Source: Candidatus Nomurabacteria bacterium (GTDB lineage Bacteria > Patescibacteriota > WWE3 > UBA101185 > UBA10185). Taken from it: a stretch of DNA of 64,000 nucleotides. A program made the translations under genes and the position numbers. The notes beneath the pieces are model-generated. The model was not told the origin of the DNA. It saw only the letters and a list, made by a program, of their open reading frames with translations, and did not search any database. The stretch spans positions 295,601 through 359,600 of the forward strand of contig JACKGU010000001.1 of NCBI GenBank assembly GCA_020631855.1, read 5' to 3'. Below are positions 16,042-60,628 of the stretch, piece after piece; within the stretch, counting starts at the first letter, position 1, and each line of letters starts with the position of its first letter.

Positions 16042-16080
16042 TTTAAAAATTCTCCAATAATATCATCAAAACTACCAATC

Positions 16081-16190
16081 ACCGCCAGCTTACGCAGGTG
16101 TTTTGCTGTAATTTCTTTTTGTTGCAAAGCCCAACATGCTGGGTAAGCTACCTCTACTAGCTTACGCAAGCAGCTATAAGTAACAAAATT
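16081..16190 (+). repeat. Copy A of a ~115-nt structured intergenic repeat family
   Basis: CACCGCCAGCTTACGCAGGTG...TTGCAAAGCCCAACATGCTGGGTAAGCTAC...CTAGCTTACGCAAGCAG... About 85-90% identical to the copies at 30264-30380 and 32801-32920. Lies between the secA stop and the HAD gene start. Confidence 0.85.
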
Positions 16191-16196
16191 ATAAAA

Positions 16197-18755
16197 TTAA
16201 GCGTCTTTGCCGTGGCATTTCTTGTATTTTTTACCGCTCCCGCAAGGACAAGGATCATTTCTACCAATCTTATCTACAGATTTAGTAGTTGGGGCTTTTG
16301 TACTTTTATTTTTTAACTTTGCTTCGTCTTCGACACCGCTATTTAGCTCTCCCTGCTCATAAACGGCCGACTGCAACTCACTCTTTAGTTTGCTTTCTAA
16401 TCTATTTTCTACGCTACGAACTTGCTCAGGAGCTCTTTTTATTTCTTTTAACCTCAGCAGTCTCTCGCTAATACCCGAGTATATACTATCAACCAGCATA
16501 TCAAATCTGGTGTGACCTTCTCGTTTATATTCAACAATAGGATCTTTTTGCGCGTAACCTCTGAGCCCAATTCCATCTCGTAAGTTGTCCATATCTACCA
16601 AATGCTCCATCCATAGCATATCAACAACTTCCACACTCAGCTGTGCAACAACCTGGGCCCATATTTCTTCACCTAGCTCTTTGCTATAATAATCCCAACG
16701 CTCCGAAACCTCAGAAGAAAGTTTTTCCAAAAACCAATCTTTGTGTGTCAAATCTTTGGACCCAATTTCAAGAATTCTACGCCTCAGTTTATACACTACT
16801 TCCCTATGCACATTCATAACATCGTCCATTTCAACGACCTGTTTTCGTCTGTCGAAGTTAAAGTTTTCAACTTTCTTTTGCGCGTTTTCGATAGCCTTAG
16901 ACACTATACCGGCTTCTAAAGGAACCGAATCATCTATGCCAAAGCGGTTCATCAACCTTTCTACCTGGGCGCCTCCGAAAACGCGCATCAGGTCATCCTG
17001 CAACGAAACATAAAACCTCGAAGAGCCGGGGTCGCCCTGTCGACCGGAGCGACCTCTCAACTGATTATCAATTCTTCTAGACTCATGTCTTTCGGTTCCA
17101 ATAACATGCAGGCCTCCAAGCTCCCTGATTTCAGCTTGTTCTTCTTCAGTCGACGGATCTCCACCTAATATAATGTCCACACCTCGGCCCGCCATATTAG
17201 TTGAAATAGTTACAGCACCTTTTTTACCCGCTTGAGCAACAATTAATGCCTCACGTTCGTGATTCTTTGCGTTTAATATCTCGTGTGGAATTTTTCTTCG
17301 TTGTAAGAAATTATGTAGAAGTTCGCTTTTTTCAACCGTTGTTGTACCAACAAGAACCGGCTGACCTTTTTCATGTAGTTTTGCTATTTCATCGGCCACG
17401 GCCTTAAATTTTCCTGCCTCTGTTTTGTACACCACATCGTTATAGTCAATTCTAGCTACAGGCATGTGGGTAGGAATTACAACTACTTCAAGTTTATAGA
17501 TTTTAAACAACTCCTCGGCCTCAGTCACCGCAGTACCGGTCATGCCGGCCAGCTTTGAATACATTCTAAAATAATTTTGATAAGAAATCTCAGCTACTGT
17601 TTTGCTTTCTTGCTGTATTTGAACATTTTCTTTAGCTTCAATTGCCTGATGCAATCCTTGAGAGAATCTATTCGAGGGCAAAAGTCTGCCGGTAAATTGA
17701 TCTACAATTACAACCTGGCCGTCTTTCACAACATAATCTCTGTCTTTCTCATACAAGGCGTGTGCGCTCAAAGACTGCTCTATCAAATGAACCATCTCGA
17801 AATCTTGTTCATAAAGATTATCTATTTTTAGTAAATTCTCAACTCTCCTTATACCAAAATCTGTTAGCGAGGCGTTTCTAAATTTTTCTTCTACTTCATA
17901 GTCAGTATTTTTTTCTAGCTGATCTATAATTCTGTTCGCCTGCATGTAACGTTCAGTGGGTTGAGCTGAAGAAGTGGAAATTATTAAAGGCGTTCTAGCT
18001 ACATCAATTAAAATTGAATCTACTTCATCAACAATAGCAAAATTATGGCTCCCCCAATCACCGTTTGGATTGGTCTGTACGGTTTGATCAAGTGTAAGTA
18101 CCATGTTATCTCTTAAGTAATCGAAGCCGAATTCGTGGTTAGTACCATAAGTTATATCTGCACGGTAGGCATCAGCCTTGCTGATCTCGCGCAGATGCTT
18201 TGTATACTCATCTTGAAACTCGGAACTAACAAACTCAGGATCGAAAATAAACGCTCGTTGCTGCATAATTACACCCGTCTTCAGTCCAAGATAATCGTAC
18301 ACTCCGCCCATCCATCCGGCCCCGTGTTTTGAAAGATAATCGTTAGGCGTTACGAGATGAGCACCCTTACCTGTTAGTGCATTAAGATACAAGGGTAAAA
18401 CGGCCGTAAGAGTCTTACCTTCGCCGGTCTTCTGTTCCGCTACCTTGCCTTGGTGCAAAGCAATGCCGGCCAACATTTGCACATCATGAATTCTGATTGT
18501 CTTATTCTCATCGCTCAAAACCCTTCTTGCCGCCTCTCTTACTAATGCGAAAGCTTCCGGCAAAATTGAATCCATATACCTTGAGGCTTCCTTGTCATCC
18601 ATTTTGGATAGAGCCTCTTTCCAAAAAGCCGTCTTTTGTAAAAAAGCAGGTCGGTCTAACCTCTCGAATTCAGGTTCAAAAGAACTGATCTTACTCAGTA
18701 TGGGGGCTTGCTTGGCAAGCAATTTTGAATTTGTATCGAAAAATTTTTTAAACAT
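16197..18755 (-). CDS. secA: Preprotein translocase ATPase SecA
   Basis: 852 aa; DEAD-like motor, C-terminal Zn-binding '[14 protein letters not shown]'. Confidence 0.97.
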
Positions 18756-22578: not shown

Positions 22579-24696
22579 CTATTTGGCTTGATTTTTGTAA
22601 ACATTGATCAAAAACTCTACATGTGCATCAAAACCCTCACCTAGTTGTTCAACACCATATAAAATCTCTTCACGATCAATTTTAGCCGCAAAAGCCCTAT
22701 CTTTAAATTTCTTCTTTACTGACGATACTTTCATGCCGTCGTAACCTTCGGGGCGCATCAATGCGTACGCATATAGAAATCCGGCCATCTCATCCACGGC
22801 AATAAGCGCAGAGGCCAGCCTGGTCTGAGGTTTTACATTGGTTCTCATGTGAGCATGAGCTGCAACTGCATGAATTAAACTCTCAGGATAGTTTCTCTCT
22901 TTAAACCATTCTAATGATTTTGCAGGATGCTCATCAGGGTATTCAAAATAATCAAGGTCATGTAATAAACCTGTGATATACCAGAGTTCGCGATCTTCAT
23001 TGAATTTTTCAGCATATGCTTCAAGACCGCGGGCGATCATAAGAGCATGCTGTATTTGATAGCTGTCCTTGACATGGTCCCGTAAAAGCGCCTCCGCCTC
23101 CTTTCTAGAAGGTAGAAATCCCTCGGAGCTAATGTATAAACTCTCGTTTAAATCAGTTTTACTTAGAGAGTCTTCTACTAGAGGATCGCTCTTGGATAAC
23201 CCGTAGATTTCAGCGTTTGCATCGTCGTAAACATGCTTCAATTGAGGAAATGGAACTCCTTCCCTTGCTGTAACATCCTCTAAAAACCAAAAAACTCTTT
23301 CTGAATGACCATAACCAAATGTCGGCGGCATGCCGTATTCAAGCATTTCAACATAATCAATATCGAGCCACTGCGCTTCCGAATCACCGGAATCTCTCAT
23401 TGACTGCTGTTCCGAAAATCGTTCAAACTGATCCAAGCCACTATTTATTTCCGACCAGCCATTTCCGAGTTCGGAGCCGGCAATAATTGGCTGGAAACGC
23501 TCTGTTATTCTGGTATCTTTTGGGTTCGCCTTTGCTAACGGCGACAAATACTTAGGGTGATTAATTAAAAAGGCAGGCCCCCCAATAGTTCTACGTATTT
23601 CTTTCCAAAGAGCGTCCACTAATCGTGGCCGATTCTCTGTCTCTGCCTTTATTCCGGCTTTTTCGCAAGCTAGCTTTAAATCTTCAATACTTGAATTGTG
23701 TACGTCTACTCCATATCTCTGCTTCATGATGTCAGAGAAATCAATCCTTTCCCACTCTTTTTTGGAGAAATCAACTTCAAAACCCCTAATACTGAACTTC
23801 TTCTTATCTCCGTAAAGAGATTCAATCACGTAATTAAAAAGGTCTTGAATAAAATCCATACCTGATTGCCAATCAGCGTAAGCCCAATAAACCTCCATCG
23901 CCATGTGTTCGGGAAGATGCTCGTCGGATAAACCCTCATTTCTGAATCTTGGGCCTATTTCATAAACTTTTTCATAGCCCCCTCCAATTAATCTTTTCAA
24001 AAAAAGTTCATGGGAAATTCTAAGATAAAGAGTCTCATCGATGGAGTCCATATGAGTCACAAAAGGATTCGCGTCTGCCCCTCCGGGCACTGCTTCTAAA
24101 ACAGGAATATTAATCTCATAGAAACCCCTTTTTTCAAAAAACTCGCGATGAGCAGCCCAAAACTTAGAACGTCTAATGTATCTATCACGAACATCATCAT
24201 TTATCCTTGTATCTAGATATCTTTTACGCATTCTGGTCTCTCTGTCTTTAAGCCCATCGTGCTTGTCGGGCAATGGTCTAAGGGATTTGGCCAATATTCT
24301 TATGCTGTGGGGCTCTATAGACTGCTCGCCGCTATTTGTTATTACTAAAGCTCCCTTGCACTCTATATAATCTCCAATATCTAATAAATCCAGCTCAGAG
24401 TAGGATATTTCACTATTTTTGTGTTCAACTTTTTCAAGATTTTGTTCCTTAATATATACCTGAATTGTGCCTGAAAAATCTTTTATATCAAAAAATGTCA
24501 GCTTTCCATGTCTTCTCAACGACATGATCCAACCGGCTAAAATTACTTCCTTTCCCCCAAGTTTGCCAAAGCTGCTTATAACTTCAGAGATTAGGTGGGT
24601 CCTAAAAGACGTTGCCGGATAAGGATCAACGCCTAGATCTTGAAGATTTTTAAGTTTTTGTAATCTTACATCCCTTAGCTCTTTTAAAGTGGCCAT
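22579..24696 (-). CDS. lysS: Lysyl-tRNA synthetase (class II) fused to a C-terminal HD-domain (YqeK-like) phosphohydrolase module
   Basis: Start taken at the 'MATLKELRDVRLQKL' Met (ATG 24694-24696; the ORF extends to 24762). Residues about 1-510 are LysRS (OB anticodon domain, class II motifs 'FRNEGLSDEHLPEHMAMEVY', 'GSELGNGWSEI'). Residues about 525-705 carry H...LLHDLDY...HAVAAHAH...D, the HD-superfamily metal-ligand order. Confidence 0.9.
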   Translation of the reverse strand: MATLKELRDVRLQKLKNLQDLGVDPYPATSFRTHLISEVISSFGKLGGKEVILAGWIMSLRRHGKLTFFDIKDFSGTIQVYIKEQNLEKVEHKNSEISYSELDLLDIGDYIECKGALVITNSGEQSIEPHSIRILAKSLRPLPDKHDGLKDRETRMRKRYLDTRINDDVRDRYIRRSKFWAAHREFFEKRGFYEINIPVLEAVPGGADANPFVTHMDSIDETLYLRISHELFLKRLIGGGYEKVYEIGPRFRNEGLSDEHLPEHMAMEVYWAYADWQSGMDFIQDLFNYVIESLYGDKKKFSIRGFEVDFSKKEWERIDFSDIMKQRYGVDVHNSSIEDLKLACEKAGIKAETENRPRLVDALWKEIRRTIGGPAFLINHPKYLSPLAKANPKDTRITERFQPIIAGSELGNGWSEINSGLDQFERFSEQQSMRDSGDSEAQWLDIDYVEMLEYGMPPTFGYGHSERVFWFLEDVTAREGVPFPQLKHVYDDANAEIYGLSKSDPLVEDSLSKTDLNESLYISSEGFLPSRKEAEALLRDHVKDSYQIQHALMIARGLEAYAEKFNEDRELWYITGLLHDLDYFEYPDEHPAKSLEWFKERNYPESLIHAVAAHAHMRTNVKPQTRLASALIAVDEMAGFLYAYALMRPEGYDGMKVSSVKKKFKDRAFAAKIDREEILYGVEQLGEGFDAHVEFLINVYKNQAK

Positions 24697-24907
24697 TATT
24701 TTATTTCCTAAACTGAATACGTACTTCGCAATTATAACAGAAAAGGGGCAGGTACAAAGCACCCAAAAATAGTGCTAAAACATTTTTACGGCCTAAATTT
24801 TTTTATTTGCTTTTATATTGCTAACCCGAACAAAATTCTTTTAGTACATGGCCTAACCTGCTTATACTAGCCACAAACAACAAAGAACTGTAAAATATCT
24901 GCAGAGT

Positions 24908-25873
24908 ATGAAAAAAATAACTGAAGCTACGATCGCTCAAGGCACTAGGGTTTTTGTGAGTACAGATATAGATGTACCTATAGATAATGGGCATATTAGA
25001 AATACTTTTAGACTCGACCGTGGCTTAGAAACTCTTAAGTACATAGTAGATAAAGGAGCAATCCCAGTAATTGGGGGCCATATAAAAAATCCTCAAGGAA
25101 AATACGATCCCCAGCTTAGTACAGCACCTCTTAAAAAGTATTATAATGAAAAATTAGGGGAGGGTTCTTACGAACTATTAGAAAATCTGCGTTTTGACAT
25201 TAGAGAAGATCAGAATGAGGATACCTACGCACAGGAACTGGCAAATAAAACAGAGGTCTTTGTAAACGAGAATTTTGCAACCTCACATCGAACAAATGCT
25301 TCTTTAGTTGCTATTACTAAATACTTACCTTCATTCGCGGGACTTAATTTGAGCAGAGAAATCGAAGCTTTGGATAAAATACTTATCGACTACAAAAAGC
25401 CTTTTACTGCAGTTATTGGCGGAGCGAAAGTTGAAAGCAAGGCACCTGTTATTGATTCGCTTTGCAACATAGCTGACAATATCCTGCTTGGTGGGAAAAT
25501 AGGCTTAAACTATTCTACGGATAATGCTAGGGTGAGCTCTCCGGCCGACTACGCAGACGGTAATCAAGATATCGGCCCGAAAACAATCCTAAACTATACA
25601 GGATACATACTGTCAGCCCAAACACTTTTATGGGCCGGGCCTATGGGAGCTTATGAAAAAGACGAATTCTGTATTGGTACAAATCTAATCGCAGATGCGA
25701 TAGTGGAAGCAACAAAAGGCGGCGCTTATAGCATAATAGGAGGCGGAGATACGATTACAGCTTATAGCAAGAACCACGCATTGGGAGAAGTAAGTTTTGT
25801 TTCAACAGGAGGAGGGGCCATGCTGACATATCTGGCGCATAAGAATATGCCCGGCATTGAGGCTTTAGGATAA
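24908..25873 (+). CDS. pgk: Phosphoglycerate kinase (compact, 321 aa)
   Basis: 'RVFVSTDIDVPIDNGHIRNTFRLDRG', 'LENLRFDIRE', 'VIGGAKVESKAPVIDSL', 'GGGDT...STGGGAML' PGK blocks. About 70 aa shorter than typical PGK. Confidence 0.9.
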   Translation: MKKITEATIAQGTRVFVSTDIDVPIDNGHIRNTFRLDRGLETLKYIVDKGAIPVIGGHIKNPQGKYDPQLSTAPLKKYYNEKLGEGSYELLENLRFDIREDQNEDTYAQELANKTEVFVNENFATSHRTNASLVAITKYLPSFAGLNLSREIEALDKILIDYKKPFTAVIGGAKVESKAPVIDSLCNIADNILLGGKIGLNYSTDNARVSSPADYADGNQDIGPKTILNYTGYILSAQTLLWAGPMGAYEKDEFCIGTNLIADAIVEATKGGAYSIIGGGDTITAYSKNHALGEVSFVSTGGGAMLTYLAHKNMPGIEALG

Positions 25874-25876
25874 ATT

Positions 25877-26179
25877 ATGGCAAAAAGTTTAAAAGTTCAG
25901 TTTCCGGAACGTTGCATAGGCTGCGAACTGTGCATCATGGAAATACAAAGACAGCTTAAAAAACACGGCCTCGAAGGTTCTCTGATTAGAGTTTTTAAAA
26001 GTGCCAAAGAAGGAAAAGAAATATGCGAGACTCTGGAATACTCAATAGATCTAGACCCGAGCATAAATTCATACGACATTGAACAAATTAGGAAAATTTG
26101 CCCAAAAAGTGTTTTTGTTGTGGCCGACATGACAGAAGAAGAGAACTACGAAGACGCTCTGCTGGAACAGAAAGATTAA
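25877..26179 (+). CDS. Small ferredoxin-like Cys-cluster protein
   Basis: 100 aa; 'CIGCELC' (C-x2-C-x2-C) plus a distal 'ICP' Cys-Pro could ligate one [4Fe-4S]. Starts 4 nt after the pgk stop. Confidence 0.5.
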   Translation: MAKSLKVQFPERCIGCELCIMEIQRQLKKHGLEGSLIRVFKSAKEGKEICETLEYSIDLDPSINSYDIEQIRKICPKSVFVVADMTEEENYEDALLEQKD

Positions 26180-26181
26180 AT

Positions 26182-27015
26182 ATGCATAAATCAGTCTTAT
26201 TTGTTAATTTAAAAAATAAAACATACGAGGTTAAAAAATTTGACGAACTCGCAAAATACATAGGAGGAGTTGCTGTTGGATTTAAACTTCTTCTTGATAA
26301 TATAGAGCACGATCCAATTATATTTTCTATCGGACCTTTGAACGGCGTGTTTCCTTTCGCATCAAAAACTTCTATCGTTCTGCATAACAATGGCGTAGTC
26401 GAAGACTTATATATCGGGGGTTCCCTAAGCTCCAGAATGGCCTTTTCCGGGGTTGACTCCATAGTATTTATAGAATCCGCAGAAGAGCCCACATACGTTG
26501 AAATAACGAATGAGGAAGTGTTCTTTAAACCAATAACAACTGATATAGATTCTTTAGGATTACCGGGGAAAAGATCAGTTTTAAAACCAATTAAAAATAA
26601 ATACTTTTTAGATGATTATTTTTTAACTCCGGAGTTATTTTTTGAAGAAAAGCTTGCAAAGAAAAATGTAGGAGGAATAGTGTTAACAGGAACAAAAACA
26701 CGTGAAATAAAAAATCCTGAAAAATATAAGGAACTTTTACACGAAATATTAGGTAAAAAGTCTTTAATGGAAATAGATGAGGGAGATAGCCCCTCTTGCA
26801 CATTTTGTCCAATGGGGTGCTCAAAGTCTCGTACCGGAGAAATTGGAGGAAACATATTGGTACACAGCATGGTGGGATGCAAGCTTAGCCAAAAAATATA
26901 CAGCGACGTGGGAACAATTTTTTCTTGCTTGAGTGTGTTGGGCTATTCCTACACACACGAAGATATTGAAGACCTGCCTCTTCTGGTAAAAGAGGTACTG
27001 GAAAAATTAAATTAA
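26182..27015 (+). CDS. Truncated aldehyde:ferredoxin oxidoreductase (AOR) N-domain-like Fe-S protein
   Basis: 278 aa (start taken at 26182, not the upstream out-of-context ATG at 26098). 'VLFVNLKNKTYEVKKFDEL...GGVAVGFKLLLD...PIIFSIGPLNGVFPFASKTSIV...DLYIGGSLSSRMAFSGVDSIVFIESAEEPTYVEI' parallels the AOR N-domain ('IRVNLSTG.I...LGGRGL...LL..E....DPL.P.N.L..A.GPLTGT.AP...R..V..KSPLTG......GG..G.ELK.AG.D.IVV.G.AEKPVY'). 'CTFCPMGC' matches the AOR C-x2-C-x3-C cluster motif. There is no pterin-binding C-terminal half. Stop overlaps the tpiA start (TAATG). Confidence 0.55.
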   Translation: MHKSVLFVNLKNKTYEVKKFDELAKYIGGVAVGFKLLLDNIEHDPIIFSIGPLNGVFPFASKTSIVLHNNGVVEDLYIGGSLSSRMAFSGVDSIVFIESAEEPTYVEITNEEVFFKPITTDIDSLGLPGKRSVLKPIKNKYFLDDYFLTPELFFEEKLAKKNVGGIVLTGTKTREIKNPEKYKELLHEILGKKSLMEIDEGDSPSCTFCPMGCSKSRTGEIGGNILVHSMVGCKLSQKIYSDVGTIFSCLSVLGYSYTHEDIEDLPLLVKEVLEKLN

Positions 27016-29459: not shown

Positions 29460-30215
29460 ATGGGAAAATTTAAAAAGAAGGTTTACCACAAAAAATATAC
29501 TAATGATCAGATCTATAACAACGTAAATCTGGGATTTACCTTAAAAAGCTCTGCGGTCCCACTTGTACTTACAGTTACGGCATGCGCCATATTTGCAACC
29601 CAAGTACTTTACCCGCTTATAAATTTTACGACCCAAGATCTTACGTCCGTCGCCGCTCAACACACAGCTTTAGCAAAAATATCAGGTTTTCGCGAGTTTC
29701 AATACTCAGAGTTACAAAGAAATGTACTAGGCTCAACAAATAATAGCGAACAGGTACAGGAGAAGTTTTATATTTCGATTCCAAAACTTAATATTGAAAA
29801 CGCTGAGGTAGAGACAAACTCTTCGAACCTAAATCCTGAAACCGCTCTTGGCCATTATCTGGGCTCAGCCTTACCGGGGCAAAATGGCACAGCGTTTGTG
29901 TACGGACACTCTGTGCTGCCTTTCTTTTACAACCCAAAAAACTATAAAACTATATTTTCAACCCTGGGAGATCTAGAAAAAGGAGATTTGATATATGTCA
30001 TATACGGCAATAGATCTTATACATACGAGGTAGAAGGGCAGAGAGAGCTTAAACCGGAAGAGGTTAATCCTATTGAGAACATAAAACCTGAATATCTACG
30101 AAAATCGTCCTTAGTTCTTATGACCTGCTCACCGCCGGGAACAAAGCTTAAAAGGCTACTTATAGACTCTGTTCTAATAAACACATCGATAATACAACAG
30201 AATTCAATAGAATAG
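29460..30215 (+). CDS. Sortase-family transpeptidase
   Basis: 251 aa; N-terminal TM; His 'FVYGHSVLPFF', catalytic Cys in 'LVLMTCSPPGT' (TLxTC-like), Arg in 'KLKRLLIDSV'. Confidence 0.8.
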   Translation: MGKFKKKVYHKKYTNDQIYNNVNLGFTLKSSAVPLVLTVTACAIFATQVLYPLINFTTQDLTSVAAQHTALAKISGFREFQYSELQRNVLGSTNNSEQVQEKFYISIPKLNIENAEVETNSSNLNPETALGHYLGSALPGQNGTAFVYGHSVLPFFYNPKNYKTIFSTLGDLEKGDLIYVIYGNRSYTYEVEGQRELKPEEVNPIENIKPEYLRKSSLVLMTCSPPGTKLKRLLIDSVLINTSIIQQNSIE

Positions 30216-30263
30216 TGTTATTTACTGACAATAGCAGATTTAATGAGCCAGGTCTTAAAATCA

Positions 30264-30380
30264 TCCGCCACCAGCTTACGCGGGTGGTTTGCTGTAATTT
30301 CTTTGCGTTGCAAACCCAACATGTTGGGTAAACTATACCTACTAGCTTAAGCAAGTAGTTTTAAGTAATGAGATTATAAA
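30264..30380 (+). repeat. Copy B of the ~115-nt structured repeat family
   Basis: CCGCCACCAGCTTACGCGGGTGGTTTGCTGTAATTTCTTTGCGTTGCAAACCCAACATGTTGGGTAAACTATACCTACTAGCTTAAGCAAGTAGTTTTAAGTAATGAGATTATA. Sits in the convergent spacer between the sortase gene and the putative substrate gene. Confidence 0.85.
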
Positions 30381-30391
30381 CAAGAATACAG

Positions 30392-30412
30392 AAATACGCC
30401 TCATGGGCGTAT
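30392..30412. terminator. 8-bp hairpin AATACGCC-ucaug-GGCGTATT in a convergent intergenic region (possible bidirectional terminator)
   Basis: Perfect inverted repeat between the 3' ends of the sortase gene (+) and the ORF 30460-31074 (-). No strong U-tract on either side. Confidence 0.35.
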
Positions 30413-30459
30413 TCCTAAAATGTTCTATAATTATAGTGCTCTGGGCTCAACGCAGATAC

Positions 30460-31074
30460 CTAATCTCTTAGAATCTTCTTTTCAAATCTAGTTTTAATAT
30501 AGCTCTTTGGGTTCATGAAGAAGTTGTAAAAGACAAACGTAAACAATGTTAACGAAATTAGCAAACCCAAAGTTACGCTAGTAGAGCCAGTTACAGGAAC
30601 TGGTGCGGTAGTTTGAGTTGTTTGAATTACTCCCCCGCCACCTCCTGCTGCAGCAGCTAAGACTGCAGGTGTATTTACTCCTCCTACCGACTCGGAATCA
30701 CCAGCACCGGTTACTAAAGATGCAAAAACACTTGGCTCTTCCATTGCCCCATCGGTTGCCTGAGTCACGGAAGTTGTTGTAGGTTCAGCAGAACCTGTTT
30801 CTTTTATTGAATAAATTCCCATAACGGCCTCATTGTCGCCTGGAGTCTTTTTCTGAGCATTTTTAGAGGAAATTGAAGAATCGGAAATTGAAACCGAATC
30901 AACGGAAGTCTCAGAAACCATAAAATACAGCGCACTGAAAACCAAAACTGATATCGAAAAAGTTATTATAAATGTTTTTAAGCCATTCTTAGCTTGACTG
31001 TTAGTATTCATAGGCAGGAATCCTAATACTATCAATATACTGAATGTCGAGATCTCCCTTAAACGGCACAGCAT
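30460..31074 (-). CDS. Secreted Thr/Gly-rich protein with C-terminal sorting-signal-like tail (candidate sortase substrate)
   Basis: N-terminal hydrophobic segment (FIITFSISVLVFSALYFMV), low-complexity T/S/G/A-rich middle (AAAAGGGGGVIQTTQTTA). C-terminus 'PVPVTGSTS' + hydrophobic 'VTLGLLISLTLFTFVFYNFF' + basic 'KSYIKTRFEKKILRD', which is the tripartite architecture of LPXTG-type cell-wall sorting signals. True start uncertain. Adjacent to the sortase gene. Confidence 0.4.
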   Translation of the reverse strand: MLCRLREISTFSILIVLGFLPMNTNSQAKNGLKTFIITFSISVLVFSALYFMVSETSVDSVSISDSSISSKNAQKKTPGDNEAVMGIYSIKETGSAEPTTTSVTQATDGAMEEPSVFASLVTGAGDSESVGGVNTPAVLAAAAGGGGGVIQTTQTTAPVPVTGSTSVTLGLLISLTLFTFVFYNFFMNPKSYIKTRFEKKILRD

Positions 31075-31246
31075 TTATTCTAGCTTGTTCCGAAATTTCA
31101 AAGGATCTTGAGATCTCTTCTCTTCCTTTTGAAAGTACTATAAAAAGTATAAAGATACTTGAGCAAAAAATCAACAAGAACCATTTCATATTATTATTTT
31201 ATATCTTTCTACAAACAAATACTTCATAAAAATGCAAAGCTTAGTA

Positions 31247-31828
31247 TCAATTAATATAGTAAATAGCAAATGTAACTATAAGAGTATCCTTTCCGGAATT
31301 GGGATTGGAATCTACATCCGCCCGTGCACTAACCACTGCGTATACTCTTTTTGAGACACTCAGGTCCTGCAGAAATTTAGGCAAAGCAGAAATATCTCCT
31401 GTTAACTTAGCAGAATAGAGCTCAGAGTATTCAACATAATCCGACTTCGTCACACTGGAATCATTGGAGGATGTCCCCTTGACTTCATCAAGCGACAGTC
31501 CGTTAATCCTTGCTATCTGTGATAGTTCAAAAATCATACCATCGTAGTCCTTTTCAACGGGAACTCCATTCATAATAATTTCAGTTTTTAAATTTCTTAC
31601 TAAATAAGGCTCGAGCAGAGCTACACGATTTATATTGTTTTTTATAATAGTTCCTTGCTCCGAAAACTCTTTAACGAGATCTTTCTTATATTTATAGGCG
31701 GAATAACCCCTAACGGCACCGAAATATCCCACAACAACTACATTAAAAGCTAAAAAGCACAGAAACAAAACAAAATTTCTGTAAGGTCGGCTTTGTATTT
31801 CTCGATCATAATAATTATTCAACTTCAT
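31247..31828 (-). CDS. PilO-like bitopic membrane protein (putative type IV pilus alignment component)
   Basis: 193 aa; single N-terminal TM (FVLFLCFLAFNVVVVGYFGA); 'MIFELSQIARINGLSLDEV' resembles the conserved PilO segment. 4-nt overlap with the upstream PilN-like gene. Confidence 0.35.
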   Translation of the reverse strand: MKLNNYYDREIQSRPYRNFVLFLCFLAFNVVVVGYFGAVRGYSAYKYKKDLVKEFSEQGTIIKNNINRVALLEPYLVRNLKTEIIMNGVPVEKDYDGMIFELSQIARINGLSLDEVKGTSSNDSSVTKSDYVEYSELYSAKLTGDISALPKFLQDLSVSKRVYAVVSARADVDSNPNSGKDTLIVTFAIYYIN

Positions 31829-32466
31829 TTGTATGTAACCTCTATCGAAATATCATACGAGCCCCCGCGATTTAAGCCTGCGTACAATAAACTGATTGAT
31901 TCTATATCTTTGTTTGAAAAAAGATTAGACATATAGATAGAAGCGTTTATCGGCTCGGAAACAACAATGTTTAGGTTTGCTTTATCAGTATCAAATGACG
32001 TGCTAGAGTAAAAACCCTTCGGCACATCCGTATTCATTACTTCTGCGTGTCTGCTGATCAGACTTCTTTTTGACTCTATAGATTTGTAAGTAGCTATACG
32101 ATCATTTACTTTAGTAACATCGGCAATAATATCTTTTCTGCTGCTGAAAGTATCTGACAAGTCTTCGACTTCTATTACAAGCTGCTCAAGCTGTCGGTTA
32201 ACTGAAAAGTTAAGCAGAAGGATAATCAAATATATTACCTGAATAAAAATGATTAAATAAACTATTATCCTCGGGGTAGAGTCGGGAATACTAATACTTT
32301 TTTCTTGAAATAAGTTTGGGGTATAAATAGGCTCAGTTGCCTCTAGCGGCTCATTTAGTGGCTGGTTTAGTCTTTGCTTTAGATTTTGAAGCTTTTTCTT
32401 TGCTGGCAGTAGAAACTTTAGTTTCTTTTTCAGCTGTATTTTTTTCTTTTTCTGGACCTTGGGCAT
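31825..32466 (-). CDS. PilN-like bitopic membrane protein (start uncertain; ORF overlaps rpsT 3' end)
   Basis: 213 aa ORF; K-rich N-terminus, TM (IIVYLIIFIQVIYLIILLLNFSV), coiled-coil 'NRQLEQLVIEVEDLSD', then an alpha/beta region. The first 39 codons overlap rpsT in another frame. Confidence 0.35.
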   Translation of the reverse strand: MPKVQKKKKIQLKKKLKFLLPAKKKLQNLKQRLNQPLNEPLEATEPIYTPNLFQEKSISIPDSTPRIIVYLIIFIQVIYLIILLLNFSVNRQLEQLVIEVEDLSDTFSSRKDIIADVTKVNDRIATYKSIESKRSLISRHAEVMNTDVPKGFYSSTSFDTDKANLNIVVSEPINASIYMSNLFSNKDIESISLLYAGLNRGGSYDISIEVTYK

Positions 32467-32728
32467 TGGCAGATACTTTCTTTGAAATCTTTGATTTTAT
32501 TCTGGCAGCCTTGTTCTTATGAATAACGTTATTTTTTGCAGCTTTATCTACTACTTTATACAATACTCTTTCCTGCTCTTTGATTATATCAAGTTCTTTT
32601 GTATTTGTAGAAAGCAATTTTTCTATTGCCTTCACAGAAGCCTTAATCTTGGTTTTCCAGAATATGTTATGAAGTCTTTTCTTCGCAGAAGATCTGACGG
32701 CTTTTTTTGCTGACTGTGTATTTGCCAT
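32351..32728 (-). CDS. rpsT: 30S ribosomal protein S20 with Lys-rich C-terminal extension
   Basis: Start at 'MANTQSAKKAVRSSAKKRLHN' (ATG 32726-32728; the longer ORF to 32767 is rejected). 'NVIHKNKAARIKSKI' matches the S20 'GLIHKNKAARHKANL' block. About 30 extra K/E/T/A-rich residues at the C-terminus. Confidence 0.85.
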   Translation of the reverse strand: MANTQSAKKAVRSSAKKRLHNIFWKTKIKASVKAIEKLLSTNTKELDIIKEQERVLYKVVDKAAKNNVIHKNKAARIKSKISKKVSANAQGPEKEKNTAEKETKVSTASKEKASKSKAKTKPATK

Positions 32729-32800
32729 ACTGCGGTAGTATGATAACACAGTAGCACAATTTGACAATACTTTGTTATACTAGGACCCCATAACTGATCA

Positions 32801-32920
32801 ACCACCACCAGCTGACGCAGGTGATTTGCTGTAATTTCTTTGCGCTGTAAAGCCCAACATGTTGGGCAAACTACATTTACTAGCTTACGCAAGTAGTTTT
32901 AAGTAACGAAATTATATAAG
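32801..32920 (+). repeat. Copy C of the ~115-nt structured repeat family
   Basis: ACCACCACCAGCTGACGCAGGTGATTTGCTGTAATTTCTTTGCGCTGTAAAGCCCAACATGTTGGGCAAACTACATTTACTAGCTTACGCAAGTAGTTTTAAGTAACGAAATTATA. Sits in the divergent spacer between rpsT and murJ. Confidence 0.85.
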
Positions 32921-55475: not shown

Positions 55476-56285
55476 ATGGACCTTAATGCTGCTCAAAACA
55501 CCAATAATCAACAGCTAAACTCGCACCCAGACGATGCTCAGAAAAATAAGCTCAATACGATTTTACCGGGCACCAATTCTCAAAGCTTGGGAGGGAATTC
55601 TCCGATTACAAGCATTGCAGGGGTGTCGGACGACGATCTTCAAAACAAAAGCATAAATCTAGACACGCAAGATACCCTAAGTACAGAAAATAAGACCAAC
55701 ACAAACAAAGAAATAGAAAAAGCAAAAGGCTACAAAGATGACATAAGTAAAATTGTATATGACTTTCTAGAAAAAAACGGAGAGAGCCTAGACAGTATGG
55801 AAGAGGTTCCATCAGACATAGGACCCTCAATAAATAACCATCCCGCAACACTTGGCCCCGGAAAAGGAAGAAGGGAGATTTTTACAAGCCCTGTAATAGG
55901 AACTATTAGTGAAAATGCGCCTATAAGCCATCGCGAAACCTTCCAAACTGAAATAGACCCGGCTTCTCAAACAGAGCAGATTTCTGTAGCTAAGGCAGAA
56001 ACATCCGCTCAAGAAGAAAAAAATTCTTCGGAAATTCAAAGTATACAGGAAGTATTACAAAACCCACAACCAGATTCCGAGAATTACGATAAAATATCAA
56101 CATTGATTCCAGAAACCGAACCTATACCGCAGCCGGATAGTGATTTGAACGTTGTTGACCTGAGAACAGGCCATGAAAATTTGCAACAAATTGCCGATCC
56201 AATAGATAAATTAACTGAAGAAGCAGATGAGAAAGAGGCAGACTTTATAACAAAAGTGGAGGATACACATGCTGTCGCTAACTGA
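55476..56285 (+). CDS. Acidic, low-complexity (predicted disordered) protein
   Basis: 269 aa; D/E/Q/S/T/N-rich, no TM. 3' end overlaps the start of the downstream ATPase gene by 17 nt, implying co-translation. Confidence 0.4.
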   Translation: MDLNAAQNTNNQQLNSHPDDAQKNKLNTILPGTNSQSLGGNSPITSIAGVSDDDLQNKSINLDTQDTLSTENKTNTNKEIEKAKGYKDDISKIVYDFLEKNGESLDSMEEVPSDIGPSINNHPATLGPGKGRREIFTSPVIGTISENAPISHRETFQTEIDPASQTEQISVAKAETSAQEEKNSSEIQSIQEVLQNPQPDSENYDKISTLIPETEPIPQPDSDLNVVDLRTGHENLQQIADPIDKLTEEADEKEADFITKVEDTHAVAN

Positions 56286-58677
56286 TATAGCCTACAACAT
56301 CTTCTGGATACTCTTTTACATTATTTTCTTGGCGAGCACTATATTAGGAATATTTTATATGCTTGCCAAAACCAAAAGACAAAGATTTCTAAAAAACAAA
56401 CAATATAATTTGACCTTCTTCCATGTTAAAGTACCACAACAAAACGAATTCGAAATAGATGCGGCAGAACAACTTTTTGCAGGCGTGGCAGGTTTGAGAA
56501 GATCAACTCTGGAAGGACTTTTGAAAGGCCAATACCAAGTCTCATTTGAGATCTTGGCCAAACACGGGCAAATAGGCTTCTATATAGTAATGCCTGACGA
56601 ATTGGTGGAATTTATGGAAAAGCAGATTAACGGGGCCTATCCTACTGCCGAAATAGACATTATTGATCCAAACGAAGTTTGGGACAGAGGGCACTTCACA
56701 GCTATCGCAGAGCTAAAACTTAAAGGACCGGCATTCTACCCTATTAGAACGATAAAAGAGAAAGAAGGTGACCCGCTAAGCACTCTCACCTCGGTACTAA
56801 CAAAGCTGAAAAAAGACGAGGTTATAGCTATTCAGCTTGTAACCTCACCTGCCAGTAACTGGTGGAGGGCTGCAGGAAATGCTTTTATCGGACATGTCAA
56901 ACACGGCGGAAATCCCGAAAAGAAAAGTGCCCCAGACAACTCCATGCTGGAAGGTGTTGAGAAAAAAATAGGAAAAAGCGGGCTTGATGTCGTTGTGAGA
57001 GTTGTCTCAATAGCTGAAACCAAACACATAGCGGAAAGCCACATAATGAACGTTGTAACCGCCTTCGAGCAGTATACTGATGTTAAATACAATAAATTCA
57101 AAAAAAGCAGAGTTTTATTTAAAACAAAATTTGTAAATGATTTCATTTACAGAAACATAACGCCTCTAAATATATACATCCCGATTTTATATAACACACT
57201 TTATAGCAGAACCTCGGTACTGAATATTACTGAGATGGCAAACATCTTCCACATGCCTAACAAAAACATACAAACTCCAAACATTCTGTGGCTAATTGCA
57301 AGAAAGGCGTCAGCCCCGTCAAACATACCTCACGAAGGCCTGTATTTAGGAATCAATCAGTTTAGAGGCTCACAGAGAGGTATCTATATGAAAGAGAAAG
57401 ATCGTACACGACATATGTATATTATAGGGCAAACGGGCACAGGTAAATCCGAGTTTATGAAGACACTGGTACTACAAGATATTGCCGCGGGAAAAGGTTT
57501 GGCTCTAATTGATCCTCACGGAAGCGATATAGACGATATCTTAGAAAAAATCCCGGAAAGCAGAATAGACGACGTAATACTTTTTGATGTTTCAGATATA
57601 GAACGCCCGATGGGATTAAACATGCTTGAAGCTGAAACCGAGGAAGAGAAACACATGATTATTAACTCATTTATTGCCTTGTTATATAAGCTATACGACC
57701 CAAACAGACAAGGTATCATGGGCCCTCAACTTGAAAGGGCTATAAGAAACGTTATGCTAACCGCAATGGTAGATAAAGAATCAACCATGGTAGATGTTCT
57801 AAGGCTATTGATCGACAACAAATATGTAGAAACTTTTATACCAAGAATTCAAGATCCACTAGTTAAACGGTACTGGACTGATGAAATGGCCAACACAAGC
57901 GACTACCATAAAGGCGAGAAAATGGGCTATTTTGTATCAAAATTTGATAGGTTCGTAACAGAGAGGACCATGAGAAATATACTAGGGCAACCAAAAAGTG
58001 CATTTAATTTTAACAAGATTATGGCAGAAAAAAAGATACTGCTCGTAGACCTGTCTAAAGGTAAGATTGGAGAAGAGAATTCAAACTTTATCGGCCTGCT
58101 TCTGGTTCCACGAATACTTGCTGCAGCTCTATCCAGAGCTTCCCTTTTAGGTAAAGAGGATTTCCCTGATTTTTATCTTTATGTAGATGAGTTTCAAAAC
58201 TTTGCCACACCTGACTTTGCTACTATACTGTCGGAAGCCAGAAAATATAAACTAAATTTGGTTGTCGCGCACCAATTTGTGGCACAGTTAACCGACGACA
58301 TTAAAGAAGCCGTGTTTGGTAACGTAGGAACAACTTGTGTTTACAGGGTTGGTCCGGACGATGCCGAATATCTTGAAAAACAGTTTGACCCTTATTTCAC
58401 AAAGTCAGATTTATTAAACTTGCCAATTGGAAACGCTTACATGAGGCTGCTTGTCGACGGCCACCCAACAACGCCTTTTTCCCTTGCTGTAGATTGGGAC
58501 ATGGTTAATAAAACTAAAAAAGATCCTTCTGTGGCAAAGAGAATAAGAGAAAACTCAAGCATGAAATACGGAACACCAGTAAATGAGGTTGAGGAATACA
58601 TAAATAAAAGGGCAGGGCTGAATAAACAAGGCGAGGATAGCCAACTACTTGAAAAAAGAAGTTTAATACCTTTTTAA
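56269..58677 (+). CDS. VirD4/TraD/TraG-like type-IV coupling-protein-family ATPase with N-terminal membrane anchor
   Basis: 802 aa; N-terminal TM (IFWILFYIIFLASTILGIFYMLA), about 300-aa domain of unknown function, then Walker A 'IIGQTGTGKSEFMKTL', coupling-protein-like Walker B 'YLYVDEFQNFATP' (xxDEFxN), C-terminal 'LNLVVAHQFVAQL'. The FtsK/HerA superfamily is certain; T4CP subfamily is probable. Confidence 0.6.
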   Translation: MLSLTDIAYNIFWILFYIIFLASTILGIFYMLAKTKRQRFLKNKQYNLTFFHVKVPQQNEFEIDAAEQLFAGVAGLRRSTLEGLLKGQYQVSFEILAKHGQIGFYIVMPDELVEFMEKQINGAYPTAEIDIIDPNEVWDRGHFTAIAELKLKGPAFYPIRTIKEKEGDPLSTLTSVLTKLKKDEVIAIQLVTSPASNWWRAAGNAFIGHVKHGGNPEKKSAPDNSMLEGVEKKIGKSGLDVVVRVVSIAETKHIAESHIMNVVTAFEQYTDVKYNKFKKSRVLFKTKFVNDFIYRNITPLNIYIPILYNTLYSRTSVLNITEMANIFHMPNKNIQTPNILWLIARKASAPSNIPHEGLYLGINQFRGSQRGIYMKEKDRTRHMYIIGQTGTGKSEFMKTLVLQDIAAGKGLALIDPHGSDIDDILEKIPESRIDDVILFDVSDIERPMGLNMLEAETEEEKHMIINSFIALLYKLYDPNRQGIMGPQLERAIRNVMLTAMVDKESTMVDVLRLLIDNKYVETFIPRIQDPLVKRYWTDEMANTSDYHKGEKMGYFVSKFDRFVTERTMRNILGQPKSAFNFNKIMAEKKILLVDLSKGKIGEENSNFIGLLLVPRILAAALSRASLLGKEDFPDFYLYVDEFQNFATPDFATILSEARKYKLNLVVAHQFVAQLTDDIKEAVFGNVGTTCVYRVGPDDAEYLEKQFDPYFTKSDLLNLPIGNAYMRLLVDGHPTTPFSLAVDWDMVNKTKKDPSVAKRIRENSSMKYGTPVNEVEEYINKRAGLNKQGEDSQLLEKRSLIPF

Positions 58678-58687
58678 GAAAGACGCT

Positions 58688-60565
58688 ATGGTAGAAACAG
58701 CAACCGCCGCAAATGACGCTTTAACAGCATTAAAGGGAAGGAGCGAAACAAAAGTTTCGCCTCTTGAAGAATTTTGGACAAATATAAATGCGCTTACTGC
58801 GGCTTCGCGACAACTGCTGACTAAAATAGAAACCAGCCCCCAGAGCGGACTGAATCAACGCAGAGCCGCACAGCTAGCTAGACAGGCTTTGGCTAGCTAT
58901 GAGATGACGACTAGCCTGACAGAAAATCCCACTAATAGAGAGGAAATTAATGCCCTTTCCAGGTTAGGCGCTGCGACAAACATCGACCCAACAAATCTAT
59001 ACAGAGAGACAATATTACTACAGCCGGAAGTACACTCGTATGAATATTCGGTCAAGCTGTTATTCTCCCACATAGTGTCTATGACCACTGAGGACAGAAG
59101 CAACACCACAAAAAACTTAGCATTGGTTTTAGCCGGGAATTGCTTAGACGGGAGTAAGGTTGATGTAAGAAAAATTCAAAACGAGCTCAGAGAATTAAAT
59201 TTTCCGAACCACCACTTATCAGAAGCAGCAGAGGCCATCGCTGCTATAATCCGGCATACGCCTTACAATCTAACAGATCATCAAGAAAAATTGGGGGTAA
59301 CAGGATACCCGGAAGTCTTGGCTAAAGCTTATAAGAGACTCTACGATCTAGCAACCAAACTTGATCCGGATACACCGCCTACAAAAGCGGAAGAAAGGTC
59401 ACAGCACCAACCCTATGCCAATTGGGAAGCCAGGGCCAAAGAAAGAGAATCGATACACTACAACAGTAATCCTAGAGAACACAAAATATTTTCACGTAAA
59501 GGAGAGATTTTGACTGCCAAGGGTTCGGAGAATAAAACAGCCCAAGTCTTAATTCCAACTGCCATACTTACCAGAACCGTACCTTTGGCGGACTTTGCAG
59601 GCAATGACAGGGCTTTCAATAAAGGATACGTAAAACTACAGCAGGTATTTACCTGCACAACATTTCAAGAAGTCGAAGCTACCCTTGAAATGCTAAACGC
59701 AGCATCTATTGCAGAAGAAGAAAAAACAGCACAGGTACCCATATATGTTCCTAAAACCGTGGTTCAAAATGGAAAAACAACAATTGAATATGAGATAACC
59801 TACATGGAGATGCCGATTGGAACCTATAATAGCTGGCGTAAAGCTTTAATGGAGGCTCGCAAATCCTACCTTAGAGCAGGATTTTCTATTCAAAACCAAG
59901 ATATAACTGCTGGAGTACGCTTAGCAACAGAGCAAGAGAATGCCTATGCAGAACAGACAATGTTGAATAGATATCAAGAGCTTTTGTCTGGACCTAGCCA
60001 TATCAAAGATTCTCTAGACGCATGGATGAGTCAAAGTCATTCAAGGGACAGATTTTACATTAAAGAATTGATGCAAAATACAATGGAACTAGTAAATGAG
60101 TTGACTGAAGAGCTTAATTTGACCCGAAACCCTCGCAATATAACATTAGAGGCTATGAAAACTCTTTATGAAGAAGGGCATGAGCAGCACCCACTGACGA
60201 TGGAAAAAGAAATAACACAGATGTTCGACAACAGAATGGCCGAGCGCTCTAACTATTATGTTGCAATGAAGGTAGCTTTGACAACTCTTGAAAATGTAAA
60301 TGCTTTACCGCCGCCAAGAGATCGCAAAGAAGCAAAAGAACAGATTAGAATGATTATAAATGTTCAAACACAAATAAAACAAATAATGCTTTTCTTGGCA
60401 CTTCAAGAAAAGGGCGTCTCCGAGAGCCGTGCCTCACAAGTCGCGCTGGAAAACTTCCCGGAACACTCAGTGATTAAAGCTCAAGTACCTTATAGGGCTA
60501 GAAATAGTCAAGCCAGAAGGGTTGCAGGAAAGAGACAAGCTGTTAGCAACCAAGGCTCTAGTTGA
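58688..60565 (+). CDS. Hypothetical 625-aa soluble protein immediately downstream of the coupling-protein-like ATPase
   Basis: No TM, no recognisable catalytic motif; mostly helical. Starts 11 nt after the ATPase gene stop. Confidence 0.4.
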   Translation: MVETATAANDALTALKGRSETKVSPLEEFWTNINALTAASRQLLTKIETSPQSGLNQRRAAQLARQALASYEMTTSLTENPTNREEINALSRLGAATNIDPTNLYRETILLQPEVHSYEYSVKLLFSHIVSMTTEDRSNTTKNLALVLAGNCLDGSKVDVRKIQNELRELNFPNHHLSEAAEAIAAIIRHTPYNLTDHQEKLGVTGYPEVLAKAYKRLYDLATKLDPDTPPTKAEERSQHQPYANWEARAKERESIHYNSNPREHKIFSRKGEILTAKGSENKTAQVLIPTAILTRTVPLADFAGNDRAFNKGYVKLQQVFTCTTFQEVEATLEMLNAASIAEEEKTAQVPIYVPKTVVQNGKTTIEYEITYMEMPIGTYNSWRKALMEARKSYLRAGFSIQNQDITAGVRLATEQENAYAEQTMLNRYQELLSGPSHIKDSLDAWMSQSHSRDRFYIKELMQNTMELVNELTEELNLTRNPRNITLEAMKTLYEEGHEQHPLTMEKEITQMFDNRMAERSNYYVAMKVALTTLENVNALPPPRDRKEAKEQIRMIINVQTQIKQIMLFLALQEKGVSESRASQVALENFPEHSVIKAQVPYRARNSQARRVAGKRQAVSNQGSS

Positions 60566-60628
60566 AAAATATCGAGGGCCTGTTTTTCAAATATACTACA
60601 AAAGCCCATTTATAGTATAATCAAGTAA

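Follow-up and report, generated by a model that had tools for sequence, protein, structure and literature searches.

A family of dispersed 117-nt repeats in a Patescibacteria genome, perhaps best explained as a decaying PATE-like element

INTRODUCTION

Transposase-less derivatives of IS200/IS605-family insertion sequences (ISs) were first catalogued in Haloquadratum walsbyi as palindrome-associated transposable elements, or PATEs (PMC3119063), and have also been noted in Halanaerobium and Geobacillus (PMC7290912, PMC10055086). Such elements are defined by a lack of terminal inverted repeats, by similar palindromes located near the two termini, and by a length that is too short to code for protein (PMC3119063). 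Here we describe a family of repeats with a comparable anatomy, three copies of which (A, B, and C) reside in a 64,000-nt stretch of contig JACKGU010000001.1 from assembly GCA_020631855.1 (positions 295,601 to 359,600), which is called the window throughout. The DNA comes from an uncultured bacterium of the Patescibacteria, or Candidate Phyla Radiation (CPR), whose G+C content is approximately 40%. A first-pass annotation of the window had noted a highly structured repeat and had offered three readings of it: a mobile repeat, a small-RNA gene family, or a protein-binding or recombination site. On balance, we judge that the repeats are probably copies of a decaying, non-autonomous, PATE-like element of the IS200/IS605 type that has spread within this lineage.

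The reference element for the IS200/IS605 family is IS608, in which the sites of cleavage are specified by short guide sequences within the element itself. The left cleavage site of IS608 (TTAC) lies outside the element and is matched to the guide AAAG, and the right cleavage site (TCAA) lies inside the element and is matched to the guide GAAT. The distance from the left cleavage site to the hairpin foot is 19 nt, and that from the foot to the right cleavage site is 10 nt. Among the base pairs stated for this system are C-3 with G-35 and T-4 with A-34 (PMC3201880, PMC3597680 for all of these details).

RESULTS

A repeat family with at least five copies

The repeat family is real. The alignment of copies A, B, and C spans approximately 120 nt, encompasses a conserved block of 116 to 117 nt (Table 1), and loses similarity sharply at both sides. 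When a profile made from the three copies was run with nhmmer against the 64-kb window, only those three copies were recovered (E ≤1e-42), and the next match had an E value of 0.09. A separate repeat search likewise identified them as the sole long direct-repeat family in the window, and a 27-nt core pattern yielded three matches in the window versus none expected from shuffled sequences. The copies lie on the plus strand of the window where they had first been placed, except that the conserved block of copy A begins at 16074 rather than at 16081. The contexts described earlier, which are a site after the secA stop codon, a convergent spacer, and a divergent spacer, are also correct, as is the earlier statement that the repeats resemble neither CRISPR arrays nor tRNAs.

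Two more copies bring the family beyond the three that were initially counted. A pattern scan of metagenomes revealed copy D, which belongs to the same species as the window and adjoins a glgA gene whose product is 100% identical to the protein of that species. The locus that carries this gene in another assembly of the species (L128) then revealed copy E. There are consequently at least five copies per approximately 125 kb sampled, occupying five unrelated intergenic spacers in one species. This sample comprises the window, its flanks, and L128, and the remaining approximately 0.5 Mb of the genome lies outside of it; the density suggests that there are perhaps tens of copies per genome. Mutual identity is 82% to 88% among copies A, B, and C, and 81% to 89% once D and E are included (over 119 nt), in place of the 85% to 90% first estimated. 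The five copies exhibit a star-like pattern of divergence, with a distance of 8.6% from their consensus. Several short-read contigs terminate within copies, as would be expected because the repeat is dispersed.

Searches farther afield revealed copies only in this one species. No further copy is present within 10 kb on either side of the window, and none was found in approximately 60 kb from three relatives (L134, L146, and L147). An exact-pattern scan of GTDB representative genomes gave a single match, which is a chance occurrence inside an archaeal gene, and the metagenome scan gave only copy D. Scans of viral contigs produced 110 matches to a 17-mer core and 47 matches to the hairpin core, but none of these is a copy as judged by nhmmer and all appear to be due to chance; the two best hairpin-core matches, when inspected directly, fall within coding sequence. 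No match with an E value below 1 was found by blastn among plasmids and phages. Thus the count beyond the window that the first-pass annotation had proposed yields D and E in the same species and no copy in the other genomes scanned. The pattern scans of databases require near-exact matches, the collections evidently lack some contigs of this species, and the family is species-restricted as far as such scans reach.

Table 1. Coordinates of the repeat copies in the window and of their parts. Left and right refer to the minus strand.
Feature	Position	Strand	Description
Copy A	16074-16190	-	117 nt; between the secA stop codon (16197-16199) and the HAD-hydrolase start (16041); most decayed window copy
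TTAT outside the inferred left end, copy A	16191-16194	-	Putative target/left cleavage tetranucleotide
Left-end subterminal hairpin, copy A	16154-16173	-	CTGCT-TGCGTAAGCT-AGTAG
Right-end subterminal hairpin, copy A	16082-16101	-	ACACC-TGCGTAAGCT-GGCGG, preceded by guide-like CAAA
Copy B	30260-30375	-	116 nt; convergent spacer between a sortase gene (29460-30215, +) and a gene at 30460-31074 (-); best preserved
TTAT outside the left end, copy B	30376-30379	-	Sequence feature
Left-end hairpin, copy B	30339-30358	-	CTACT-TGCTTAAGCT-AGTAG, preceded by guide-like AAAA
Right-end hairpin, copy B	30268-30287	-	CCACC-CGCGTAAGCT-GGTGG, followed by the 8-nt tail CGGATGAT ending in TGAT
Copy C	32797-32913	-	117 nt; divergent spacer between rpsT (ATG at 32728, -) and murJ (+)
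ATAT outside the left end, copy C	32914-32917	-	One base off the TTAT of the other four copies
Left-end hairpin, copy C	32877-32896	-	CTACT-TGCGTAAGCT-AGTAA
Right-end hairpin, copy C	32805-32824	-	TCACC-TGCGTCAGCT-GGTGG, followed by the tail TGGTTGAT
Central perfect 14-nt palindrome CCCAACATGTTGGG	30315-30328 (B), 32853-32866 (C), 16130-16143 (A, one mismatch)		Sequence feature

Two homologous hairpin modules in direct orientation

The anatomy of the repeat is most easily described on the minus strand, where each copy carries two homologous modules of approximately 30 nt that share the same orientation and are located 72 nt apart. The left module reads RTTAC-TT-AAAA-[CTACT T GC GTAA GC T AGTAG] and the right module reads ATTAC-AG-CAAA-[CCACC T GC GTAA GC T GGTGG], with the hairpins in brackets. 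The consensus order begins with TTAT outside the element, and continues with a 17-nt left linker ending in AAAA, the left hairpin, an interior of approximately 49 nt that includes the 14-nt palindrome, the sequence CAAA, the right hairpin, and an 8-nt tail ending in TGAT. The hairpin core AGCTTACGCA is present twice per copy, always as a direct pair, and has no occurrence outside the 117-nt units. The parts listed by the first-pass annotation are all present, namely a 5' hairpin (CACC...GGTG), the palindrome, the internal direct repeat, and an AT-rich tail. Its additional C-G pair in copy B, which had been considered compensatory, proves to be a one-sided change.

The ten hairpins can be aligned without gaps, and 90% of the aligned cells are paired. 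Left and right hairpins have an identical top, and the two pairs that distinguish them are fully compensated (CG:5/UA:5 and CG:4/UA:4). Because these differences are compensated, the hairpin shape appears to have been selected when the element arose, although they amount to just one or two evolutionary events. An inverted-repeat search of each copy with its flanks revealed no terminal inverted repeats linking the two ends, but only the internal hairpins and the palindrome. At 116 to 117 nt, the element is too short to encode a transposase, and its reading frames differ between copies owing to a 1-nt indel in B. Small open reading frames inside the element were also considered and were dropped, given that B and C carry theirs in different frames. 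The distribution of substitutions over the element is close to even (permutation p = 0.10), which fits neutral decay.

Boundaries and the guide/cleavage rule

Conservation between copies begins on the left at the junction TTAT/AATTT, with four of the five copies carrying TTAT. On the right it stops after the 8-nt tail, whose last four nucleotides are TGAT in B and C, TTAT in D and E, and TGGT in A. To these boundaries the IS608 rule was applied by pairing cleavage-site positions 1, 2, and 4 with guide positions 2, 1, and 4, respectively; both third positions are A. Pairing of the fourth guide base with the last base of the cleavage site was reportedly described by Barabas and colleagues in 2008, and is consistent with the published IS608 sequences. 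Under this rule, the consensus guides AAAA and CAAA predict the tetranucleotides TTAT and TGAT, and both of these are observed. Moreover, where the guides differ (A to C), the cleavage sites differ correspondingly (T to G).

One independent check on the inferred boundaries is provided by copy D. At its junction (L128:9824-9829), the TAA stop codon of a GH57 gene takes its T from the end of TTAT and its AA from the start of the element. When copy D is excised in silico at the inferred boundaries, an in-frame TAG returns at the same codon of the GH57 gene.

These same tetranucleotides can be read in another way, in which the family is a small mobile repeat of no established class, moved by an undescribed, non-HUH enzyme and duplicating TTAT as its 4-bp target, with the hairpins being incidental or recognized in some other mode. 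Such a repeat would readily explain the presence of TTAT on both sides of D and E, and the combination of TTAT and TGAT (one mismatch) that borders B, since roughly one mismatch per element between the flanking 4-mers suits a decay of approximately 9% per site. It also gains from the fact that the sampled DNA offers no transposase to anchor an IS200/IS605 assignment. However, elements that duplicate their targets normally carry terminal inverted repeats, which are absent here. In addition, the right 4-mers of A, B, and C have a G at one shared position, and on the left these copies read TTAT or ATAT. This shared G argues that the right tetranucleotide belongs to the element and was inherited with it, rather than made anew at each insertion. 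A target-duplicating repeat would furthermore leave unexplained both the guide/cleavage match and the direct-repeat arrangement of the hairpins, and we regard this explanation as unlikely.

Insertion history and strand preference

Past insertion is suggested by L147, a distant relative with the same order of genes as L128 (GT5, two GH57 genes, glgA, galT, and the convergent rplL-rplJ). The GH57-glgA and galT-rplL spacers are element-free and 50 and 73 nt long in L147, versus 171 and 268 nt in the species studied here, where they contain D and E. The spacers of the relative are shorter by roughly the length of the element at the D site, and by more than this at the E site. Removal of copy A would leave a spacer of 38 nt between secA and the HAD-hydrolase gene.

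Four of the copies form two direct pairs, with members approximately 2.5 to 2.6 kb apart (B and C at window 30260-32913, D and E at L128:9828-12559). Each pair brackets a short block of genes that run in the minus sense of the element, namely rpsT with three membrane-protein genes in one instance and glgA-galT in the other. This bracketing may be a coincidence.

Repeats without any mobility, such as decaying remnants of segmental duplications or recombination scars, might be expected to lie in pairs around segments of approximately 2.5 kb, as B and C do at the rpsT island and D and E do at glgA-galT. Nevertheless, all five copies lose similarity abruptly at two common boundaries and have no flanking sequence in common, and the five loci are unrelated. 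When the shorter spacers of L147 are also considered, an origin of this kind seems extremely improbable.

All five copies have a uniform orientation when local GC skew is used as a proxy for replication direction. The skew of the plus strand of the window ranges from -0.14 to -0.22 at A and is weakly negative at B and C, whereas the plus strand of L128, where both copies lie on the minus strand, has a positive skew at D and one near zero at E. As a result, the strand that bears the hairpins coincides with the G-rich strand in five of five copies. By this proxy the G-rich strand is the lagging-strand template, and the placement of the active strand on it is, for five copies, suggestive. IS200/IS605 elements are reported to lie in this same orientation (PMC5027513).

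Uniform orientation relative to GC skew would also be anticipated if the repeats were DNA-level sites used by the host, either as lagging-strand-template priming or structuring signals near an origin or as binding sites for a dimeric protein on the 14- to 16-nt palindrome. Consistent with a role of this type, substitutions are fewest in the palindrome, which is perfect (2 of 70 cells changed), and three copies are located near a switch in skew and gene strand. In opposition to it, the skew is steady around D and E, which lie on a different contig, the palindrome's lower rate of substitution does not reach significance, and the relatives are without the element. Host sites of this sort are normally short and conserved across related species. 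To our knowledge, the palindrome matches neither the parS nor the DnaA-box consensus. For these reasons, a function as host sites is considered highly unlikely.

Tests for RNA structure and transcription

Folding energies do not set the repeat apart as highly structured, which is how it had first been described. Minimum free energy z-scores range from -0.6 to -1.8 for RNA of either strand and from 0 to -1.9 for DNA, and are not significant. Rfam searches gave no match in the window at gathering scores and, at E values up to 10, no credible match overlapping B, C, or D. The sole overlap is a weak hit to TD-1 (30331-30425, E = 2.3, 21 bits versus a gathering score of 64.5) that covers part of copy B. 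RNAalifold was run on both strands and revealed no compensatory pair between copies; a long-range helix that it proposed (TGTAATTTC/GAAATTATA) was dropped, as two of its pairs are lost in copy E and it exhibits no covariation. Neither a full sigma-70 promoter at the TATAAT of the left junction nor an intrinsic terminator associated with the copies was found, and this TATAAT has no -35 element or conserved upstream region. A weak lean toward the minus strand is apparent, in that five of seven single stem substitutions there give G-U (or G-T) and the hairpin loops read GUAA. An independent small-RNA gene thus has no positive support, and the Rfam and covariation checks that the first-pass annotation had recommended for this option both came out negative.

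The small-RNA proposal is nonetheless worth stating in its strongest form. The copies would be sibling small-RNA genes, or cis-acting RNAs, transcribed from the minus strand beginning a few bases after the left-junction TATAAT, and would present two GNRA-capped hairpins and the conserved single-stranded sequence AAAGAAAUUACAGCAAA for action on mRNAs or binding by a protein. The TATAAT is indeed invariant in all five copies, and both loops read GUAA on the minus strand, where the change in copy D from GC[GUAA]GC to GU[GCAA]GC keeps a GNRA loop and a wobble pair. The G-U pairs noted above take the place of mismatches, and three copies lie 30 to 70 nt upstream of co-oriented genes (the HAD hydrolase, rpsT, and glgA). 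These hints must be set against the negative results just described, which include the broken long-range helix. Furthermore, a separate promoter for rpsT lies between copy C and the start codon, non-GNRA loops occur in B, C, D, and E, the element has decayed roughly uniformly over its length, and the syntenic sites of the relative lack the element. Small-RNA genes or cis-acting RNAs are therefore quite improbable in our estimation.

A variant that keeps the mobile origin is that the copies have acquired a use and are not dead relics: insertion itself would make the TATAAT, by joining the TTAT target to the AAT of the element, and this sequence would drive a minus-strand RNA of approximately 120 nt past the right end into the flank. 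Such an RNA might resemble an omega RNA and serve as a guide for a TnpB protein encoded elsewhere, or the repeat might act as a portable promoter or leader, in which case the genes downstream would be HAD hydrolase-lepB-rpoBC, rpsT, and glgA. We consider a role of either kind very doubtful.

The host and the neighborhoods of the copies

Anaerobic-digester and wastewater metagenomes have yielded many assemblies of the species, among them GCA_020427845.1 and GCA_020631805.1. Contigs from many metagenome studies (L001-L005, L128-L133, L135-L144) are 99.92% to 100% identical over several kilobases, indicating a globally near-clonal population. The NCBI label Candidatus Nomurabacteria conflicts with the closest SecA and GlgA homologues, which are WWE3/Katanobacteria-like but only 58% to 69% identical. 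Two independent contigs end in 51 nt (L136:5292-5342; L137:5292-5342) that exactly repeat the preceding sequence in inverted form. These divergent ends were considered as a variant junction, and were rejected as a fold-back assembly artefact.

Near copy B, a strong intrinsic-terminator-like hairpin on the minus strand (30389-30417), with 12 pairs and a T-rich tail, is located downstream of the membrane-protein gene at 30460-31074. Copy B lies just past this hairpin on the minus strand, and its TTAT target is in the T-rich stretch. The rpsT promoter near copy C (32740-32767, minus strand) is a good sigma-70-like sequence in which TTGTCA and TATCAT are separated by 16 nt, with an upstream TG. 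Its -10 hexamer ends approximately 11 nt before the ATG, and therefore the rpsT mRNA may be nearly leaderless.

Several other features of the window deserve mention. At the aspS/pgk spacer (24762-24908) the genes switch from the minus to the plus strand, and the cumulative GC skew has its minimum at approximately 34 to 38 kb, so the window may contain or adjoin the replication origin; neither dnaA nor dnaN was found in the window. The aspartyl-tRNA synthetase (22579-24762, minus strand) is fused to a C-terminal HD-domain module in a protein of 705 to 727 amino acids, whereas at L134:5215-7249 the synthetase (501 amino acids) and the HD protein (180 amino acids) are encoded by separate adjacent genes. 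Between pgk and tpiA, a position usually occupied by gap, is a gene for a protein of 277 to 305 amino acids (26098-27015, plus strand) whose sole Pfam match is AFOR_N, the N-terminal domain of aldehyde:ferredoxin oxidoreductase. Finally, a cluster at 55476-63364 (plus strand) encodes an 802-amino-acid DUF8128/DUF87/TraG-like ATPase, a PilM/FtsA-like protein, and two proteins without Pfam matches (625 and 509 amino acids), and could be a pilus-, secretion-, or DNA-transfer-related module.

DISCUSSION

If the repeats are PATE-like, each would be composed of just the two ends of an IS200/IS605-family insertion sequence, with its active ("top") strand corresponding to the minus strand of the window. 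The enzyme, the chemistry, and the exact cut sites can be proposed by analogy with IS608. A Y1 transposase of the HUH type, supplied in trans, would bind both hairpins on single-stranded DNA, and the cleavage sites would be located by AAAA pairing to TTAT and CAAA pairing to TGAT. The top strand would then leave as a circle and be inserted 3' of TTAT on the lagging-strand template, and no target duplication would result. The present copies are most likely relics of an old burst, as they lie approximately 9% from their consensus, are fixed in a near-clonal population, and include several eroded hairpins. They agree with the descriptive definition of PATEs on every feature but target duplication, and mechanistic membership in the class awaits a cognate transposase.

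A number of observations weigh against this interpretation. No Y1 transposase (Y1_Tnp), TnpB/OrfB protein, integrase domain, or parent IS is encoded by any gene in the approximately 125 kb sampled, and no sequence similarity was found between the repeat and catalogued IS ends. Both the boundaries and the match of guides to cleavage sites were derived post hoc, and shuffled AT-rich flanks contain both TTAT and TGAT within permissive distance ranges 3% to 6% of the time, although the coincidence of these tetranucleotides with the conservation boundaries makes the chance lower than this by an unquantified amount. TTAT borders D and E on both sides, unlike A, B, and C, which leaves room for a 4-bp target duplication. 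With five of five copies on one strand, the two-sided p is no better than about 0.06, and strand is confounded with the direction of the genes. Lastly, there is no polymorphism between filled and empty sites within the species, where every contig is filled and all are more than 99.9% identical, and the case for mobility depends on the distant relative L147. Since the species is near-clonal, the absence of a strain with an empty site says little.

Patescibacteria have extremely streamlined genomes, which most descriptions portray as containing little mobile DNA. If the PATE reading is right, a fixed repeat derived from a single-strand transposon in such a genome would mean that IS200/IS605-type elements were once active there. 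The repeat also explains why short-read assemblies break at the sites of copies, and it provides a compact natural example of the IS608 guide/cleavage rule written with other letters (AAAA-TTAT and CAAA-TGAT). If a TnpB protein exists in the genome, then the copies would be candidate donors of guide RNAs, and an RNA-guided or regulatory role, if true, would be the first such use of a PATE in Patescibacteria. Otherwise, the copies look like ordinary relics of selfish DNA, which would make a modest addition to a known class rather than a new structured RNA.

Comparison with other small repeats narrows the form that a mobile element might take. Like repetitive extragenic palindromic (REP) sequences and their bacterial interspersed mosaic element (BIME) arrangements, which are mobilized by the Y1 transposases called RAYT or TnpA-REP, the copies are intergenic hairpin repeats, and the 3' halves of their stems contain GTAG and GTGG. 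REPs are single palindromes of 20 to 40 nt that often form inverted pairs (BIMEs) and reach hundreds of copies. This assignment was rejected, as the hairpins here have a direct orientation within a fixed 117-nt unit and never occur alone. Classical MITEs (miniature transposable elements bearing inverted repeats) such as Correia, ERIC, RUP, and BOX are likewise approximately 100 to 150 nt long, intergenic, and multicopy, with predicted hairpins. Classical bacterial MITEs have terminal inverted repeats and target-site duplications, but the repeat lacks the former and is ambiguous with regard to the latter, and it was not classified with them. Integron attC sites, whose inverse core and core sites at opposite ends fold into a single long imperfect hairpin within an array beside an integrase, were rejected as well: here RYYYAAC and GTTRRRY are found just back to back, forming the central palindrome, the two ends repeat each other directly and not in inverted form, and there is no integrase near the copies, whose neighbors are housekeeping genes. 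Accordingly, of the readings originally offered, that of a mobile repeat is favored, in a PATE-like form and not as a classical MITE or REP/BIME, and that of small RNAs lacks positive support.

The closest similarities are with PATEs and with IS608. The repeat shares with PATEs a non-coding length, an absence of terminal inverted repeats, two similar near-terminal palindromes on the same strand, a short conserved oligonucleotide at the boundary, and many dispersed intergenic copies of moderate identity. It differs from described PATEs in that no parent IS or transposase was found in the approximately 125 kb sampled, in having no sequence similarity to them, in its length of only 117 nt, in its central perfect palindrome, in an argument for mobility made without strain-specific insertions, and in its host, which has an ultra-small Patescibacteria genome. 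IS608 differs from the repeat in having tnpA and tnpB, an unrelated hairpin sequence, and linkers that are 2 nt longer, and the cleavage proposed here is deduced from sequence. The organization is otherwise parallel to that of the Helicobacter pylori element, with subterminal imperfect hairpins at both ends of one strand, and asymmetric linkers of 17 and 8 nt here versus 19 and 10 nt. The target is outside the left end (TTAT here versus TTAC) and the right tetranucleotide is inside the element (TGAT versus TCAA). In both systems the guides lie directly 5' of the hairpin feet and have A as their third base (AAAA and CAAA versus AAAG and GAAT), and the same pairing rule is satisfied at both ends.

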